Shown: piece by piece, positions 14,378-34,753 of the stretch
Position numbering within the stretch: position 1 is the stretch's first letter
How the letters are laid out: every line of letters begins with the position of its first letter
Virus record (IMG/VR): IMGVR_UViG_3300044878_000093
Span: 1 to 37,471 of that record
DNA: 37,471 nucleotides
Source of the DNA: a virus
Taxonomy: Duplodnaviria > Caudoviricetes
Reading direction: 5' to 3' (one strand)
The notes under the pieces: generated by a model
What the model saw: the letters and a program-made list of their open reading frames with translations, nothing else
Database searches by the model: none
Told to the model about the DNA's origin: nothing
Translations under genes and position numbers: made by a program

Positions 14378-14390
14378 TTAAATTCTCTCC

Positions 14391-14642
14391 TCAACAATAA
14401 GCCGAACACTTCGGACAAGGACAGCTCAAACACATTGGCTTATATCTATCCGCTACAGGGATGCTGTCCCATATACATTTGATGTCTCCTATCTGCCCAC
14501 TTCTAAACTTACTAATACCTCCATCAGTAAACGGATATTCTTGACTAACTCTATACCTATTCAAAGACTCTTCAAGCTCTTTCTTAATTTCCTGAAGTTG
14601 TTGTTCGATACTGTCCATACGTTCTTCAATTGTGATGTTCAT
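14391..14642 (-). CDS. hypothetical protein, C-terminal CLSCPCPKC
   Basis: coiled-coil N-terminus plus Cys cluster. Confidence 0.6.
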   Translation of the reverse strand: MNITIEERMDSIEQQLQEIKKELEESLNRYRVSQEYPFTDGGISKFRSGQIGDIKCIWDSIPVADRYKPMCLSCPCPKCSAYC

Positions 14643-20019: not shown

Positions 20020-20263
20020 TACATTTCTCCTTGTGCGTAGTGAAGATCTAATTCAAGATTCCAATAAGGATCTACGTTAAAGTCTGGTTCTAGGTGATCA
20101 TCTTCATCTGGAACTTCGTAGAGTTGGTCAAAGATGTTCATAGTTAGCACATACTAGGTCCGTGCCAAGGATTACCGCACCAAGGACACAATCCACGATC
20201 ATCAGTCATTTTACAAATAATTTTCATAATATCTCTCTCCTCTATTTGTGTTCGTATGCTGTC

Positions 20264-24716: not shown

Positions 24717-25153
24717 TTCAAATTACCCTCATCAAACACATCAAAATCTGGGTAATGTTGCTCTGGTACGTTACGCCACTCCTTGTCAAAGTAATTATCA
24801 CCATTAACGTCAATATCTTCCTCGTTGTTCCTGTGCAATGTCCAGTTGCTGCACTCTTCGTAACGAGTCTCTAGGCACCATTTCTTAGCCATGTGTGGGA
24901 GCAGTTTAAGAAACTCTTGAATTGTGTGGTCGTAGTTCTTAAGTTCACTGTGAAATTTTACAGTCTTACCTTCAATTGATTTTACACCGTCTCCTGAATG
25001 TGGAATCCAGTGACTACGGCTGAATGTAATGAATGGTTTTACTTTATCTATTGTGTGACCCATCATTGACCACTGATTTTCTCCTGCGAAACATTTAGCA
25101 AGCGCTTCAGTGGTGAACTCGATAGTACCTTGAATCTCTGTGTACATTCCCAT
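24713..25153 (-). CDS. conserved hypothetical phage protein
   Basis: MGMYTE...LKNYD..I..F; AAGGAGA RBS; first gene of - strand block. Confidence 0.7.
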   Translation of the reverse strand: MGMYTEIQGTIEFTTEALAKCFAGENQWSMMGHTIDKVKPFITFSRSHWIPHSGDGVKSIEGKTVKFHSELKNYDHTIQEFLKLLPHMAKKWCLETRYEECSNWTLHRNNEEDIDVNGDNYFDKEWRNVPEQHYPDFDVFDEGNLK

Positions 25154-25184
25154 CTTTCATCTCCTTCGTTTAGTTGATAGAAAC

Positions 25185-25213
25185 AGGATACACGAGTGTT
25201 TAGAGGAAAGCAA
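25185..25213 (-). promoter_or_regulatory. sigma70-type promoter driving - strand block
   Basis: TTGCTT-17-TATCCT. Confidence 0.65.
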
Positions 25214-25307
25214 GCGTGAATTCAAAAGATTTTATGCTGGTTAGATTTTGTTGGAATAGGGGGATTGTTTTTGTTGAGAGGGTTGACATGGGAAGCGACG
25301 AAAGGAC

Positions 25308-25336
25308 TTGCTTTATTTTAAAATCCATGTTAAACT
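25308..25336 (+). promoter_or_regulatory. sigma70-type promoter upstream of structured non-coding region
   Basis: TTGCTT-17-TAAACT with TG extension. Confidence 0.6.
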
Positions 25337-25409
25337 AAACTGAAGGTATAGAGAAAAGAAAAAGAATATATTTATTAGTTGTATTTTTCTTTGGTTGCTG
25401 TATACTTGA

Positions 25410-25850
25410 TGCATTCCGTAATTTTCTAAGCGAGAGTACATTAGACTACGGATCGGTTTGAAGGTCGGTTAACATGGTGGTGAAAACTTCCTGTGTGAGA
25501 TGGCAGCTTCATTCTTAAACAAGCGGACTACTGTGAGTGATGGGACAGTCTGCAAGGTAAACTGAAAAACACTACCTCCCTAACGGTACTAATAATGCCG
25601 TGCGATATGCAATGTGTTGAGCTGATACGTTATTAGTGTTATCAGCCTGAAGGCAGCTACGTTTGTCCGTGTAGACTGTAGAGTGATTATTCACTCACTA
25701 AATCTCGTCTCAAGTTAGAAGGCATTTAATTGCTATAACGGACAGAGGCAGATAGGAACTTCAGATAAGGTACGTTACTCGGTCTTAGGCAGAACGTTGG
25801 TTCTGTATGGCTGGGTAAGGTATTTCTTTATCTGAAGTTCCTATCTGAAC
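25410..25850 (+). ncRNA. putative large structured non-coding RNA
   Basis: no long ORF; at least 6 hairpins, two long-range pairings, ~100-nt terminal hairpin; G-U pairs favour + strand. Confidence 0.5.
25749..25847 (+). repeat. 20-bp perfect inverted repeat closing ~100-nt hairpin
   Basis: CAGATAGGAACTTCAGATAA (25749-25768) / TTATCTGAAGTTCCTATCTG (25828-25847). Confidence 0.95.
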
Positions 25851-25966
25851 TCAGTTAGAATTGTAAATCAAATACAAATAAATAATATTAAATACTTAAA
25901 AATCAATAACTAATCTTAAGATCAACAACATAAAACAAAGAAAGATAAAATAAATATTACAAACCC

Positions 25967-25995
25967 TTGCTTTTTAGATATTTATTTGATATTCT
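25967..25995 (+). promoter_or_regulatory. sigma70-type promoter
   Basis: TTGCTT-17-TATTCT with TG extension. Confidence 0.55.
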
Positions 25996-26026
25996 ACAAT
26001 CTAATAACCAATTAAAGGATCCCTCC

Positions 26027-26218
26027 ATGCGCTGTAGGTGCTGCGACGTCCCTCTGACGTGGAGGGATATAAAGATTAAACAAGATGATAACAGCGAGGA
26101 GGATTTTTGCTCTAAGTGTTTATCCATTGTGTATGATATTGATAGCTATGAACCCAAGACATATGTATTTGAAGATTTGTGTAATGAGTTCTACATTCCA
26201 GAGCAATACATAGAATAA
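26027..26218 (+). CDS. small zinc-finger-like protein
   Basis: MRCRCCD..L....FCSKC; AAGGA RBS before ATG 26027. Confidence 0.65.
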   Translation: MRCRCCDVPLTWRDIKIKQDDNSEEDFCSKCLSIVYDIDSYEPKTYVFEDLCNEFYIPEQYIE

Positions 26219-26223
26219 AGTAG

Positions 26224-26252
26224 TTGCAAATATAGTGTAATAATGTTACAAT
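26224..26252 (+). promoter_or_regulatory. sigma70-type promoter
   Basis: TTGCAA-17-TACAAT with TG extension. Confidence 0.7.
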
Positions 26253-26257
26253 TATGT

Positions 26258-26536
26258 ATAGCTGCTGCTTTTGTATAGCGGATTTAAAAGATTCACCTGA
26301 TAAGACAAAAAGAACTAAATTCTACATAAAGTCTTATCTCCAAACGCTGACTTCTCTCCTCCTCTTCCTGTCAGCACTTAAGAGTATCTGCCTCTCTCCT
26401 CAGATATCTCTATTGACCTTGATAGCGTGTAACGTACCTCTCCTTACGGTATAGGCTTAGTACAGGGTCATTTCTTAAAATCTATCCTTACTTCTTAGTA
26501 TATTGCAGGTTGTCCTGTTGATAGATTTTAAGAAAT
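26258..26536 (+). ncRNA. putative sRNA / structured leader with three CU-rich (anti-SD) loops
   Basis: hairpins at 26346-26375, 26381-26411, 26414-26470 each expose CUCUCC(U); 17-bp perfect IR 26470-26486/26520-26536. Confidence 0.55.
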
Positions 26537-26559
26537 TCAACTTATTCGGGTAAAATGTT

Positions 26560-26985
26560 ATGGCTACTAAAAAAGAACAGAGTGACGCTGCTAAGGCAAC
26601 ACGTTTCGATGGTGAAAAATCAAACCGTAACGTTCGGGGAAATAGTAAGGTCCGTATCAATAAATCTAAAATCAGCAAGCTTTTAGACCAGTTGATGGAA
26701 CGTAAGGAGTTGGCATTTGAAATCATTGATGATATTCTTGCTAACAAAGGTGATAGGACTGCCGACCAGAAATCTACAGCCCAATGGATCGTAAATAGCA
26801 TTGTTTCGGTTTCAAAAGCTTGTACTGCTGAAGAGCTTGGTAGTTTTAATGCTAGATTGAAAGGTAAGCGTGATCCCGAGGAACCAGAGGAACAAACACC
26901 AGCTGAGATAGCCAAGGAATTTAAGCCTCGTTTGGTTCTGACTTATAAAGATCCAAATGCTGTTCCTGATGAAGATGATGAATAA
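26560..26985 (+). CDS. putative terminase small subunit
   Basis: basic N-terminus (ATRFDG..N..GN), helical core, size and position ahead of packaging genes; no diagnostic motif. Confidence 0.45.
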   Translation: MATKKEQSDAAKATRFDGEKSNRNVRGNSKVRINKSKISKLLDQLMERKELAFEIIDDILANKGDRTADQKSTAQWIVNSIVSVSKACTAEELGSFNARLKGKRDPEEPEEQTPAEIAKEFKPRLVLTYKDPNAVPDEDDE

Positions 26986-27000
26986 AAGAATTTCTGAGCT

Positions 27001-27284
27001 GCCTAGTTCGGAAACCCGTGGTTTCTGGCGGAACCACAAAAGCGTGATCGCTGCTTAAGCATCAATTCCGAGCACTTAGGTGTTTCGTCTGTGGAGAAGC
27101 TGAACAATTTTGTGTTCAGAGAGTTATTAGGTCATGGTAGAGTGGACGCTAATACAATTATTTATAGGCCGCTGCAACGGTCTTTAAAAACATGCAACAG
27201 TAAGACTCTTTTAGCAAGTTTCTCAGTGATGGGTTATTTGCATGTCCCTGTTGCAGCATTGGGTGACTTGACTAAAAGGGTTTT
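27001..27284 (+). promoter_or_regulatory. structured RNA leader of HNH gene, RBS in stem
   Basis: multiple hairpins; AAGACTCTTTTAG (27202-27214) pairs with CTAAAAGGGTTTT (27272-27284). Confidence 0.55.
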
Positions 27285-27289
27285 ATTAA

Positions 27290-28030
27290 ATGAGTAATAA
27301 AGAGAAATACCTAGGAAAGATTCTAGAAACAAAGAGCTTTGGTAAGTATAAAGTTATTGAATACTTAGCTTGGGATAACATTACAGTGAAGTTTCTTCAA
27401 ACTGGATATGTTACAAAAACCAGACAACAGCATATTACAGATGGTGTCATTAAAGACTATTTATATCCATCTGTTTATGGTGTCGGTTACTATGGAAGTC
27501 CTAGTGCAAATACAACAGGCCGAGCAGCCTTTATTTGGCGAAGTGTCATGCAGCGTTGCTATGAAGAGGAAGGTAGAATTGAGCCTGCCTATTACGAAGT
27601 AAATGTATGTACGTCATGGCACAATTTCCTAGTATTTGAAGAGTGGGTAGTAAAACAACCCGGATTTGATACGAAAGGATGGGAATTAGATAAAGACCTC
27701 CTTATTAAGGGCAATAAGCTGTATTCACCAGACACTTGCGTTTACTTACCTAAGGCTGTCAATGCAGCACTAACTAAGCGGCACAACCACCGTGGAAAAT
27801 ACCCTATAGGCGTTCAGCCAAGTAAGTCTGGGAAAAGATTCGAGGCTTGGTGTGGTGATGGAGAGCGTAGCAGATACTTGGGCGTATTTGGTACACCAAT
27901 AGAAGCTTTTCTTTGCTATAAGGCTAAAAAAGAAGAGATGTTGAGGAGTTTGGCTGAAAAATACAAAGACGAATTAGACCCTCGTGCATATCAAGCTCTT
28001 ATGAATTACCAAGTAGAAATTACTGATTAG
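27290..28030 (+). CDS. free-standing HNH-type homing endonuclease
   Basis: YGVGY, W..V.QRCY, W.NF..F..W, WELDKDLLIKGNKLYSPDTCVYLP..VN, YLGVF.TP.EAF. Confidence 0.85.
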   Translation: MSNKEKYLGKILETKSFGKYKVIEYLAWDNITVKFLQTGYVTKTRQQHITDGVIKDYLYPSVYGVGYYGSPSANTTGRAAFIWRSVMQRCYEEEGRIEPAYYEVNVCTSWHNFLVFEEWVVKQPGFDTKGWELDKDLLIKGNKLYSPDTCVYLPKAVNAALTKRHNHRGKYPIGVQPSKSGKRFEAWCGDGERSRYLGVFGTPIEAFLCYKAKKEEMLRSLAEKYKDELDPRAYQALMNYQVEITD

Positions 28031-31420: not shown

Positions 31421-31444
31421 AAAAAAACTAAAATGAGGTGTTAT

Positions 31445-32167
31445 ATGAACATCGTGAAACCTTGCTCTAATGCACAGGCTTTGTTCGTAGAAAGTGAAAG
31501 CGATATTACCATTCTTAATGGTGCTGGTGTAGGTAAGAGTTTTGGTAATCTGCTGATTCATCGAGACTGCATTGAAGACCCTAAGTACAGTGGTCTAATT
31601 GCTAAAGCATCAGCAAGAGCTGCTTCGTATACATTTGATGAAGCTGTTGAGTTCTATAAAGATTACGGTATCAAAGCCTTCTCGAAAAACCGAAGAATTT
31701 GTTTTGATTCAGGCGCCCGAATTGATGTTGGAAGCGGCGCTACAGTTAAAGATATAGGATATGCCTATGGAGCACAGTACGATAAAGTTACTGTGGATGA
31801 CGCAAGTATCTTTAAACTAGAAACTATCTTTTATCTTATGACTAGGATCAGAGGTCAGTCTTCTATTCCTAAGCAACTTTATCTGACTTGTAATGCTGAC
31901 GAAGAATCTGAAATTAAACCATTCGTACTTCCTTGGTTAGATGACAAAGGTTATCCCAAAGAAGAGTCAAACGGAAAAGAATATTACTTGTATCGTGATC
32001 CAGAGTTGGGAATTGTTTATACATCTTCTCCTGAGATTCCTTGGCAACGAAGCGTCAAGTTTATTCACGATAAAGCAGATAACAATCCTTATTTGAAAGA
32101 TACCAAATATTTAGAATACCTCTTGAGTTGTAATAAGGTTGACTCGCTTTATTATGGTAAGTGGTAA
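31445..32167 (+). CDS. degenerate ATPase-only paralogue of terminase large subunit
   Basis: collinear with TerL N-terminal domain: NGAGVGKS, GAQYD.VTVDDA, YLMTRIR, TCNAD, NNPYL, LYYGKW; no nuclease domain. Confidence 0.75.
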   Translation: MNIVKPCSNAQALFVESESDITILNGAGVGKSFGNLLIHRDCIEDPKYSGLIAKASARAASYTFDEAVEFYKDYGIKAFSKNRRICFDSGARIDVGSGATVKDIGYAYGAQYDKVTVDDASIFKLETIFYLMTRIRGQSSIPKQLYLTCNADEESEIKPFVLPWLDDKGYPKEESNGKEYYLYRDPELGIVYTSSPEIPWQRSVKFIHDKADNNPYLKDTKYLEYLLSCNKVDSLYYGKW

Positions 32168-32182
32168 AAGTTTATAAAGAGT

Positions 32183-32286
32183 TTGCTGCTTGCAGCAACA
32201 CCGAGGCTCGTCGGGATGACGCCCTCACCTATTCAGGACACGTTGTGAAACGCTCCTATACTCATGTCTTGCCGTGAGGCACACAG
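32183..32286 (+). promoter_or_regulatory. cluster of hairpins with GUGA/GGGAU loops
   Basis: CGTC-GGGAT-GACG, CGTT-GTGA-AACG, TGCC-GTGA-GGCA. Confidence 0.55.
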
Positions 32287-32314
32287 TTATCTTAGTTTAA
32301 TAAGAGACTAAAAC

Positions 32315-33241
32315 ATGAATGAAGTTGAACAAAGAAGTAAAAACACCAAAGATATGACTGGATTTAAGTCTGGTCTTCTTACAGTTGTAGAATGGGCTGG
32401 TTATTTCCAATTGTCTGGTGGATTACGCCATGCACAGTGGAAGTGTTCTTGTGAATGTGGCGGTGAAGTTATTTCACTGGCTACAAACTTGAAGAAACCA
32501 AATCATACAACCTCTTGCGGCTGCGTTAAGAAACAAGTATTAACCAAGCACAGGGAAAGAGTTGAATCCGGCGAATGGATACCAGAGAAACTGGTCGGTT
32601 CAAAGTTTGGTCGCCTTACTGTTATGGAATTCACAAGATGGCATGTTGGTAACGACACTCAAAAGACATCAATGTGGAATTGCTTGTGTGATTGTGGTAA
32701 TGAAAAAGAGATGAGAAGGTCTTATCTTCAATCTACCGAAGTCCCTAGTTGTGGTTGCTATATGTCTGAAGTGTTATCTGAACTTCAAACTAAACATGGG
32801 ATGACAGGTACACCAACACACCAGACTTGGCGAAAGATGAAAGAACGTTGTCTCGCTGAGTACTACGTTGAAAAAGAGTATTACCAAGATCAAGGTATTG
32901 ATATTTATCCGCCTTGGGTTGAATCTTTTGAAAACTTCTATGCTGATATGGGTGAACGCCCTGAAGGTATGACTTTAGACCGAATTGATGGAACTAAAGG
33001 CTACTATCCTGATAACTGCCGATGGGCAGATTTAACGATACAAGCTTATAACCGTAAGAAAGGAACTAATAATACATCCGGTCGCGTAGGAGTTTTTGCG
33101 CTTCCTAATGGTATGTGGAAAGCTGCTATTGGTTATTACAAAGAACTTATTGTAGTTGCAAACAATGTTAGTTTTGAAGCTGCTTGTGAAGCTCGTGAAA
33201 AAGCTGAACTAGAATATTACGGATGGACCAAAGAGCGGTAA
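32315..33241 (+). CDS. HNH-like homing endonuclease with duplicated CxCxCG modules and AP2-like C-terminus
   Basis: W.C.CECG..SCGC twice; HGMTGTPT..W..M..RC; F.NFYADMGERPEG.TLDRID...Y.P.NCRWA; SGRVGV. Confidence 0.85.
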   Translation: MNEVEQRSKNTKDMTGFKSGLLTVVEWAGYFQLSGGLRHAQWKCSCECGGEVISLATNLKKPNHTTSCGCVKKQVLTKHRERVESGEWIPEKLVGSKFGRLTVMEFTRWHVGNDTQKTSMWNCLCDCGNEKEMRRSYLQSTEVPSCGCYMSEVLSELQTKHGMTGTPTHQTWRKMKERCLAEYYVEKEYYQDQGIDIYPPWVESFENFYADMGERPEGMTLDRIDGTKGYYPDNCRWADLTIQAYNRKKGTNNTSGRVGVFALPNGMWKAAIGYYKELIVVANNVSFEAACEAREKAELEYYGWTKER

Positions 33242-33246
33242 ATATT

Positions 33247-33281
33247 AATTCCCTCTAGGTTATAATTATTTAGAGGGAATT
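33247..33281 (+). promoter_or_regulatory. hairpin sequestering TerL RBS, TATAAT in loop
   Basis: AATTCCCTCTA / TAGAGGGAATT; TATAAT at 33261-33266. Confidence 0.65.
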
Positions 33282-33286
33282 TTTAA

Positions 33287-34753
33287 ATGTCTGATCCAAA
33301 TGTCATCGCCCCTGCAAGTAAACCTCAGGCCATGTTCCTCTCTACTCCTGACTGGGTAGATATATGCTTCTACGGCGGCCAAGCTGGCGGAGGCAAGACT
33401 TGGGCAGGTTTGGCACATCACGCTAAATATATGCACGATCCTTTGTACAGAGGATTGACACTTCGACGAACAACACCAATGCTGCTTAAGCCGGGTGCTG
33501 TTTGGGACGAAGCAAAACAATTATACAGACTTCTTGATCCAGATTGTAGAATTAGGATCAAAGATCTAAAGATTATTGCAAGTTCAGATGCAGAAGTATT
33601 CTTCTCCCACTTTGAACGGGTAGATGATACCGACAACTTTCAAGGCGCTCAAATCTCCAGTTGTGTAATGGAGGAACTTTGTCAGTTTGAAGAGTCTCAG
33701 TTTAACTACATCCTCTCTCGACTTCGTACTAAGGCTAATATGAAGCCTAACATGCGAGCTACCATGAACCCTGACCCAGATTCGTGGGTCCGTAAGTGGG
33801 TTGATTGGTACTTGTACCCAGAAGGTCACGAATTGTTTGGTCGTCCAGACCCAGCAAAGCAAGGTGTAATTAGGTGGTTTGTTCGTCTAGATAATGAAAT
33901 GTTCTGGGCTGATACAAAAGAAGAACTTGCTGAACGATTTCCTGATGCAGTTCCACTCTCATTTAGGTTCATCGCTGCTTCCGTCTACGATAACCCGCAT
34001 ATTGAAAAGAGTTATATTGCTTTCCTTCAAGGTCTTCCTAGAATTCAGAAAGAAATTTTGCTCTACGGGAATTGGGAAGCGCGTCCAGAATCGAATTCCC
34101 TGATCCGGCGTGAGTGGTTCGTGGAATGTGCTGAAGAACCGGCATGGACTGACATTGTAAAAACTGTACGAACTTACGACTTCGCAGGAACTCTTAAGGG
34201 CCCGGATACAGTCTATGATCCTGACTACACTGCAAGTATTAAAATCTCTAAACTAAAAAATGGTGAATACTTTATTCATGACGTTATCCGTACAAGGATT
34301 CGTTTTGGTGAGTGGAGCCGCTTTGTTCTAGAGAATGCACTTCGCGATGGTGTGAAGGTTGATATCGTAATCCCAGAAGATCCGGGACCAAGTGCTAAAG
34401 CTGCAACTATGATGCTGGCACGAGAGATATCTGAGCAAGGTTACTTTGTAAGAACGTTGAAAACGAACCAGAAAAAGATCGACCGTTTCCGCCCATTCGC
34501 ATCATTCACAATGAATGGTGGTATGAAGATCCTTAAGAATTGTGGTAATGACTTTGAGAACAAAGTCTACAATGATCTTTCTTTCTTTTACAAAGAATTG
34601 GAGACATTCACAGGTGAGCGCAAATCAGGCTCACAGGGCCACGATGATCTTGTTGACGTTTGCTCTGATGGATTTATTGTTCTAGCTCAGAAGTTAAGTA
34701 TCCCACTCTTCACTCTTCCGAGTGTCACAAAATCAAATGAATTCAGCTTTTAA
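33287..34753 (+). CDS. terL: terminase large subunit
   Basis: YGGQAGGGKT Walker A, MEEL Walker B, TMNP motif, YDFA and HDDLVD nuclease acidic residues; precedes portal. Confidence 0.93.
   Translation: MSDPNVIAPASKPQAMFLSTPDWVDICFYGGQAGGGKTWAGLAHHAKYMHDPLYRGLTLRRTTPMLLKPGAVWDEAKQLYRLLDPDCRIRIKDLKIIASSDAEVFFSHFERVDDTDNFQGAQISSCVMEELCQFEESQFNYILSRLRTKANMKPNMRATMNPDPDSWVRKWVDWYLYPEGHELFGRPDPAKQGVIRWFVRLDNEMFWADTKEELAERFPDAVPLSFRFIAASVYDNPHIEKSYIAFLQGLPRIQKEILLYGNWEARPESNSLIRREWFVECAEEPAWTDIVKTVRTYDFAGTLKGPDTVYDPDYTASIKISKLKNGEYFIHDVIRTRIRFGEWSRFVLENALRDGVKVDIVIPEDPGPSAKAATMMLAREISEQGYFVRTLKTNQKKIDRFRPFASFTMNGGMKILKNCGNDFENKVYNDLSFFYKELETFTGERKSGSQGHDDLVDVCSDGFIVLAQKLSIPLFTLPSVTKSNEFSF

Follow-up and report, generated by a model that had tools for sequence, protein, structure and literature searches.

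What does the stretch that lies between a small zinc-ribbon-like gene and the packaging operon of a myophage that probably infects Pseudomonas, positions 26224 to 26536 of IMGVR_UViG_3300044878_000093, specify? To our knowledge, only a few of the RNAs made by lytic phages have been assigned a function. The original prediction for this locus was a small RNA displaying three anti-Shine-Dalgarno (anti-SD) loops, with which it would block ribosome binding sites (RBSs), and that reading as a whole is partly supported. Judged by comparison of sequences, the element is a real, uncatalogued structured RNA family found throughout one phage clade.

The window, that is, the whole 37,471-nt stretch of DNA analysed, is a 37-kb fragment (40.6% GC, 43% complete) of a myophage related to PAK_P3, phiPsa374 and ventosus. 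It carries terminase, portal and PhoH genes (PHROG matches), and its portal protein is 46-50% identical to those of Pseudomonas phages. Because the ribonucleotide reductase of a clade member is 76% identical to its Pseudomonas phage counterparts, and one homologue of the 141-aa protein encoded downstream of the RNA bears the label Pseudomonas sp., the host is likely to be Pseudomonas; the RNA-carrying clade probably consists of uncultured phages infecting that genus. The RNA locus corresponds to the position of the tRNA cluster in cultured relatives, and ARAGORN finds no tRNA or tmRNA gene in the window. The features of the locus are as follows.

26027..26218, + strand: zinc-ribbon-like ORF of 63 aa upstream of the RNA (phrog_10364, E 1e-7; Pfam Zn_ribbon_2 below cut-off)
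26224..26252, + strand: sigma-70-like promoter-like site TTGCAA-17-TACAAT with TG (9/12 consensus)
26290..26535, + strand: the predicted non-coding RNA in full, about 245 nt (26290-26534 scores 172.9 bits with covariance model R1)
26290..26297, + strand: conserved single-stranded 5' motif G(A/U)UUCACC (GTTTCACC in 30/43 copies)
26299..26338, + strand: hairpin H0, with a variable A-rich top (in 38/38 core copies)
26346..26375, + strand: hairpin H1, 18-nt pyrimidine loop with CUCUCCU (predicted stem 26346-26351/26370-26375)
26381..26411, + strand: hairpin H2, loop CCUCUCUCCU (predicted stem 26381-26390/26401-26411, 10-nt loop)
26414..26470, + strand: hairpin H3 (predicted), loop CCUCUCCU at 26437-26444
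26471..26535, + strand: 3' three-way junction, a 16-bp closing stem around hairpins 26489-26500 and 26505-26518
26560..26985, + strand: 141-aa clade-specific gene downstream of the RNA, heading the packaging operon (138 homologues)

From its 5' end, the RNA thus runs through GUUUCACC, H0 and the three CUCUCCU-loop hairpins to the 3' three-way junction. The hairpins, promoter-like site and inverted repeat of the original prediction all lie where it had placed them; it missed H0 and the 5' motif, which reads GATTCACC in the window copy. The third hairpin had been drawn as a GTAA/TTAC stem presenting CTCCTTA. That sequence is present, but the tip is predicted to fold as a CGTA/TACG stem with an 8-nt loop, so that the UA of CTCCTTA is paired. 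Similarly, the 17-bp stem thought to divide the unit from the next gene exists as an inverted repeat (arms 26470-26486 and 26520-26536), but it encloses two hairpins and belongs to the RNA. The fold energy of the + strand (z -5.57) is matched by none of 100 shuffles, whereas that of the - strand (z -1.42) is not beyond chance. A search for an intrinsic terminator with a U tail gave none. Two other candidates were rejected. An ORF overlapping the RNA (26254-26454) has no PHROG match, and its homologues differ by many indels; of four CTGATGA..GAAA matches in the window to a hammerhead core, none lies directly upstream of the RNA.

How widely is the element distributed? Homologues of the 141-aa protein led to 29 viral and 27 metagenome loci, and a pattern scan led to 65 further viral loci. 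The covariance model R1, built on 28 copies and run against 79 sources, returned 48 matches, of which 43 are full-length with E below 1e-9; the five weak ones were dropped from the family. The 43 copies are all distinct, are 49-78% identical to the window copy and sit on phage-like contigs, almost all of which also carry the 141-aa gene of the clade. Two further pattern scans (142 loci) add four full-length and two partial copies. Each of 15 near-complete clade genomes holds a single strong copy; one genome also has a weak second R1 match (G010:C1:26682-26905, - strand, E 4e-4). A divergent subtype, seen in L018, L028 and L040/L058, has another 5' half and extra hairpins bearing UCUCC. Helix and loop counts refer to 38 core copies, the 43 minus the divergent L018, L021, L028, L040 and L050.

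Outside the clade, R1 found nothing at E 0.001 or better in 11 cultured relatives (two fragments, E 0.3 and 0.9). In the window no Rfam model reached its gathering score; six unrelated weak matches (E up to 10) fall in 25100-27350. A blastn search of cultured phages left the window stretch unmatched; with the L052 copy as query it returned only short matches, 11 in all and attributable to chance. A pattern scan of 16 of 64 parts of the bacterial and archaeal genomes yielded at least 120 loci, and none among the matches listed fits the profile. No phage RNA with repeated anti-SD-like loops was found in the literature searched. The RNA does not occur in the searched part of the supplement (three of six listed files) of the Fremin 2023 catalogue (PMC10690425), and no such RNA was seen in the available portions of a 2025 review (PMC12197685) and an ONT-cappable-seq study (10.1101/2023.10.13.562163).

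Multiple observations indicate that the fold is conserved. When folded individually, all 38 core copies form the same five top-level domains and contain the three motif hairpins, whose stems are variable and covarying. In a MAFFT alignment, both partners have changed in 21 of the 24 pairs counted for H1 and the 3' domain (H1 5/5, closing stem 13/15, inner pairs 3/4), and 88.6% of paired alignment cells can pair, versus 72.2% after shuffling and 33-48% when the partners are slid. H0, H2 and H3 aligned too poorly for such a count, and their support comes from the single-copy folds. The original prediction had proposed to check relatives for loops that stay constant on stems that covary, and this is what the family displays: C and U make up 97.6% of the 114 H1-H3 loops, of which 105 contain UCUCC and 81 CUCUCCU. 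UCUCC motifs are mostly unpaired (148/153), and the base 5' of them is C in 105/153 and U in 32/153. The further idea that the loops copy the 3' end of 16S rRNA is not supported, however. The 16S tail used for comparison is CUCCUUA/CCUCCU, and the 16S core CCUCCU is found in only 12 of the 114 loops and CUCCUUA in 2; the core of the family is CUCUCCU.

The same folds identify the strand. The + strand is the more stable in 40 of 43 copies, the mean z is -8.0 for + versus -3.7 for - (22 of the 43 copies tested), and the + strand folds contain 155 internal G-U pairs versus 3 A-C mismatches. From these comparisons, + is well supported as the functional strand, the preference already voiced in the original prediction. 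The reverse complement still folds, and its loops hold AGGAGAG, so it could be imagined that the - strand is the functional RNA and that its GGA loops act as a sponge for CsrA/RsmA. That the stability and the G-U asymmetry both favour +, that tRNAs adjoin the 5' end on the + strand and that the conserved promoter points the same way make a - strand sponge scarcely credible.

The sequence around the 5' end suggests how the RNA might arise. Promoter-like sites as a class are no commoner in the window than in shuffled sequence (9 vs 7.6 +/- 3.1). The TTGCAA-17-TACAAT site, with a predicted transcription start at about 26258-26260, is kept in L002/L004, L055 and L019. In the window and L055 this promoter precedes the 5' motif, from which it is separated by a short leader that ends in TTTAAAA; in L004 the promoter is followed by tRNA-Asn and then by the RNA. 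CCA immediately precedes the 5' motif in 15 of 43 copies, tRNAs called by ARAGORN stop one base before it in L003, L008, L011, L020, L023, L030 and L045, and its UUCACC is unpaired in 33 of 36. The 5' motif is thus likely to be a processed 5' end. Directly 3' of the RNA, L008, L013, L014, L029, L042 and L054 have elements closed by a long bulged stem, several of them with tRNA-like D and T loops and no ARAGORN call; we take these to recall Y-RNA-like tRNA mimics. As to the enzyme at the 5' end, RNase E frees the alphaproteobacterial RNA CcsR1 by a cut at GUUUCC, which is close to the phage RNA start GUUUCACC (available portion of PMC8034643), and release by RNase E can therefore be reasonably supposed here.

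Could the element instead act in cis? It might serve the 141-aa gene or the late operon as a 5' leader or processing signal, or form an array of cruciforms in the DNA. In favour, many loci have the end of the RNA just 23-55 nt ahead of the 141-aa gene, and the inverted repeat at the base of the 3' stem is conserved. The distance between RNA and gene exceeds 1 kb in 12 of 38 loci, however, with other genes or a tRNA (L017) next to the RNA, which therefore is not the leader of that gene, and the G-U asymmetry points to RNA rather than DNA. A role in cis is thus very unlikely. The 141-aa gene itself is found in 12/12 RNA-carrying and 0/10 control genomes. PHROG, Pfam and PDB give no identification of its product, which from its position may be the terminase small subunit.

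Two terminase-large-subunit-like ORFs of 244 and 488 aa (24% identical) lie at 31433-34753 with an HNH gene in between, and terminase and portal types are shuffled among clade members. Five HNH endonuclease genes are found in the 37 kb (5102, 11539, 21065, 27290 and 32315); the segment that precedes one of them (27150-27287) recurs at differing places in relatives. A second, larger conserved structured non-coding element of about 460 nt lies at 25405-25865 (+) and is also present in L055, L030 and L021 (nhmmer E 1e-176 to 1e-72). RNAalifold on the four copies gives 146 pairs, 30 of them with changes on both sides; there is no Rfam match, and 1 of 12 complete clade genomes scanned has the element. 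A third, of about 170 nt, lies at 26995-27160 (+), right after the 141-aa gene, and comprises CCUAG, a hairpin with a CUGGCG loop, GUGGAGAAG and a hairpin whose GGUAG loop may pair with the first loop.

If the loops do pair with RBSs, which ones would they meet? The original prediction pointed to two genes with 10-nt loop matches. Both matches (14383-14392 and 20233-20242) exist in RBS positions, but the second uses one stem base, and the two genes are not supported as specific targets: a perfect loop complement of at least 8 nt is present at 3-18 genes per genome, and no conserved single target stood out among the long loop matches across genomes. The proposed link to AGGAGA-type RBSs in general fares better. 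A single script called the genes of both the 12 RNA-carrying genomes and the 10 cultured relatives that lack the RNA. The carrying genomes consist of four strand blocks, with labels inferred from gene content, and no RBS 6-mer is commoner than AGGAGA in the replication (126/478, 26%) and phoH (120/521, 23%) blocks; its share falls to 13% in the block presumed to be early and to 8% (44/524) in the late one, which holds the virion genes, and it is lower in late than in middle genes in 12/12 carrying genomes. Inside the 37-kb window alone, a single fragment, the AGGAGA comparison (1/11 vs 11/72) is uninformative.

Regions anchored by homology, to portal for late and to helicase for replication genes, allow the two groups of phages to be compared. 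AGGAGA RBSs are found at 19/341 late vs 109/400 replication genes in the RNA-carrying phages and at 49/275 vs 88/296 in the 10 relatives without the RNA (per-genome ratios, Mann-Whitney p 0.003). The base after AGGAG is A or G at 31/77 late vs 120/158 replication sites in the carrying phages, and at 68/105 vs 137/159 in the controls, and the late-gene spacers of the carrying phages are as A-rich as those of their replication genes. In 12/12 carrying genomes the late-gene drop in predicted loop pairing exceeds the drop in anti-SD pairing, by 0.51-1.37 kcal/mol; the same difference is at most 0.29 kcal/mol in the 10 controls, on a measure partly inflated by their GGAGG-rich middle genes.

Several points bear on how these numbers are to be read. 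The 12 carrying genomes probably form one clade, and being related they are not independent in the RBS test. Their GC content is 40-41%, versus 44-51% in the seven controls measured. PAK_P3, which has no copy of the RNA, shows this late depletion as well (1/28 vs 10/31), and the controls as a group lean toward late AGGAGA depletion too. With gene families as units, AGGAGA (8/10, p 0.11) and GGAGA (12/16, p 0.077) do not reach significance; AGGAG(A/G), picked after several motifs were tried, is rarer in the carrying phages in 12 of 15 informative late families (sign p 0.035) and in 6 of 9 replication families, and no trend appears for the control motifs (9/18 and 9/19). Together, the RBS signal is consistent with masking at a late stage and escape of the late genes, and is suggestive rather than decisive.

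A working model for the RNA is multivalent masking of RBSs that damps translation late in infection, a reading with about an even chance of being correct. The RNA would be transcribed from the + strand as part of the tRNA/packaging operon, freed by an RNase E-type cut at its 5' GUUUCACC, with a tRNA CCA or an AU-rich leader before the cut, and stabilised by the 3' junction. Its three UCUCCU loops would then pair in trans with AGGAG(A/G) RBSs. The loop has U in place of the first C of the 16S CCUCCU and could pair with both AGGAGA (A-U) and AGGAGG (G-U), so that the RNA would read the RBSs of phage middle genes and of the host; virion genes with AGGAGU, AGGAGC or shorter sites would escape. As to the late timing, the promoter is sigma-70-like and need not be late. 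Replication-gene sites read GGAGAA (82) more often than GGAGAG (46), and because the loops prefer C before UCUCC, they are not tuned to the commonest 7-mer of the phage. The full AGGAGAG is present in only 5-7% of middle genes, and thus most duplexes would be about 6 bp. If masking holds, phages can time translation through sub-classes of RBS, and the RNA would offer a compact and tunable means of damping translation in Pseudomonas. A bolder version, in which a lytic phage switches from middle to late translation and shuts off host translation by RNA alone, its virion RBSs having evolved out of the AGGAG-purine class, is doubtful; if true, the temporal programme would be written in the RBSs and the RNA would be its reader.

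The preference for C before UCUCC, which phage RBSs leave unexplained, could also reflect a protein partner. CsrB, RsmY/Z and CrcZ are protein sponges with a repeated loop motif, and three near-identical loops on variable stems would suit such a design as well. The loops might sequester a host factor that binds pyrimidine loops, or occupy, as surplus substrate, a defence nuclease that cuts the anti-SD-like UCCU of 16S rRNA; some toxins reportedly cleave the 16S anti-SD or remove it. An anti-defence role has often been proposed for phage tRNA clusters, and the RNA sits amid tRNA genes. Against a decoy stand the scarcity of 16S-like words in the loops and the late-gene RBS shift, which it would not explain, and a scan of 14 clade-specific proteins, out of 17 clade-specific families listed, recovered no known RNA-binding family. 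A protein decoy is rather unlikely on this evidence; if it is correct, the loop word would lead to a new host factor or defence nuclease.

A fixed loop word would equally be explained by a fixed RNA partner, namely one or a few specific RNAs with GGAGA(G), either a host sRNA that the loops would sponge or the 170-nt neighbour at about 26995-27160 with its conserved GUGGAGA. The neighbour shows G(U/C)GGAGA in 8 of 9 aligned copies and is present in 7/12 carrying vs 0/10 control genomes. It offers, however, one motif for three loops, was not detected in the other 5/12 carrying genomes, and has GUGGUGAAG as its motif in G001. Pairing with such a specific partner is thus unlikely, more so than a protein decoy.

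How does the RNA compare with known systems? CsrB, RsmY and RsmZ repeat a GGA motif in many hairpin loops, whereas GGA occurs in 0/114 of the + strand loops of the phage RNA, and there is no RsmY match in the window. Staphylococcal RNAIII uses C-rich loops to kiss RBSs, but is bacterial, longer and encodes a peptide; its Rfam model finds no match in the phage RNA. Closer in setting are sRNA1 and sRNA2 of PAK_P3, which the available portion of PMC4933390 describes as strongly late and for which translational silencing was proposed. Their genome is that of a related Pseudomonas myophage, and they are encoded, like the present RNA, in the tRNA region ahead of the terminase genes. They differ in size (83 and 134 nt as annotated), and PAK_P3 has no R1 match anywhere and no CUCUCCU hairpin array was seen in its sRNA stretch.

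The closest likeness in design is to the cuckoo/alpha-r14 RNAs of Alphaproteobacteria (CcsR1-4 and NfeR1), in which adjacent hairpins with variable stems present one repeated anti-SD-like C/U loop word (available portions of PMC4615179 and PMC8034643). Cuckoo RNAs have 2-4 such hairpins, and the phage RNA has three in 38/38 core copies. The cuckoo loop word CCUCCUCCC, however, is found in 0/114 phage loops, where CUCUCCU takes its place, and cuckoo RNAs are without a multiloop (PMC4615179, as far as available), whereas the phage RNA has the extra H0 and the 3' three-way junction. The phage RNA, of about 245 nt, also resides in the tRNA operon of a lytic phage rather than on alphaproteobacterial replicons. 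Cuckoo Rfam models give no match to it at gathering score, and the two ORFs that flank it have no Pfam match to DUF1127, the neighbour of the CIN1 subgroup. Since motif, architecture and host range all differ, the phage RNA is not a member of the cuckoo family. The three redundant anti-SD motifs of NfeR1 silence many mRNAs (available portion of 10.1101/2025.11.14.688489), and by analogy the phage RNA would work as the cuckoo and NfeR1 RNAs do.
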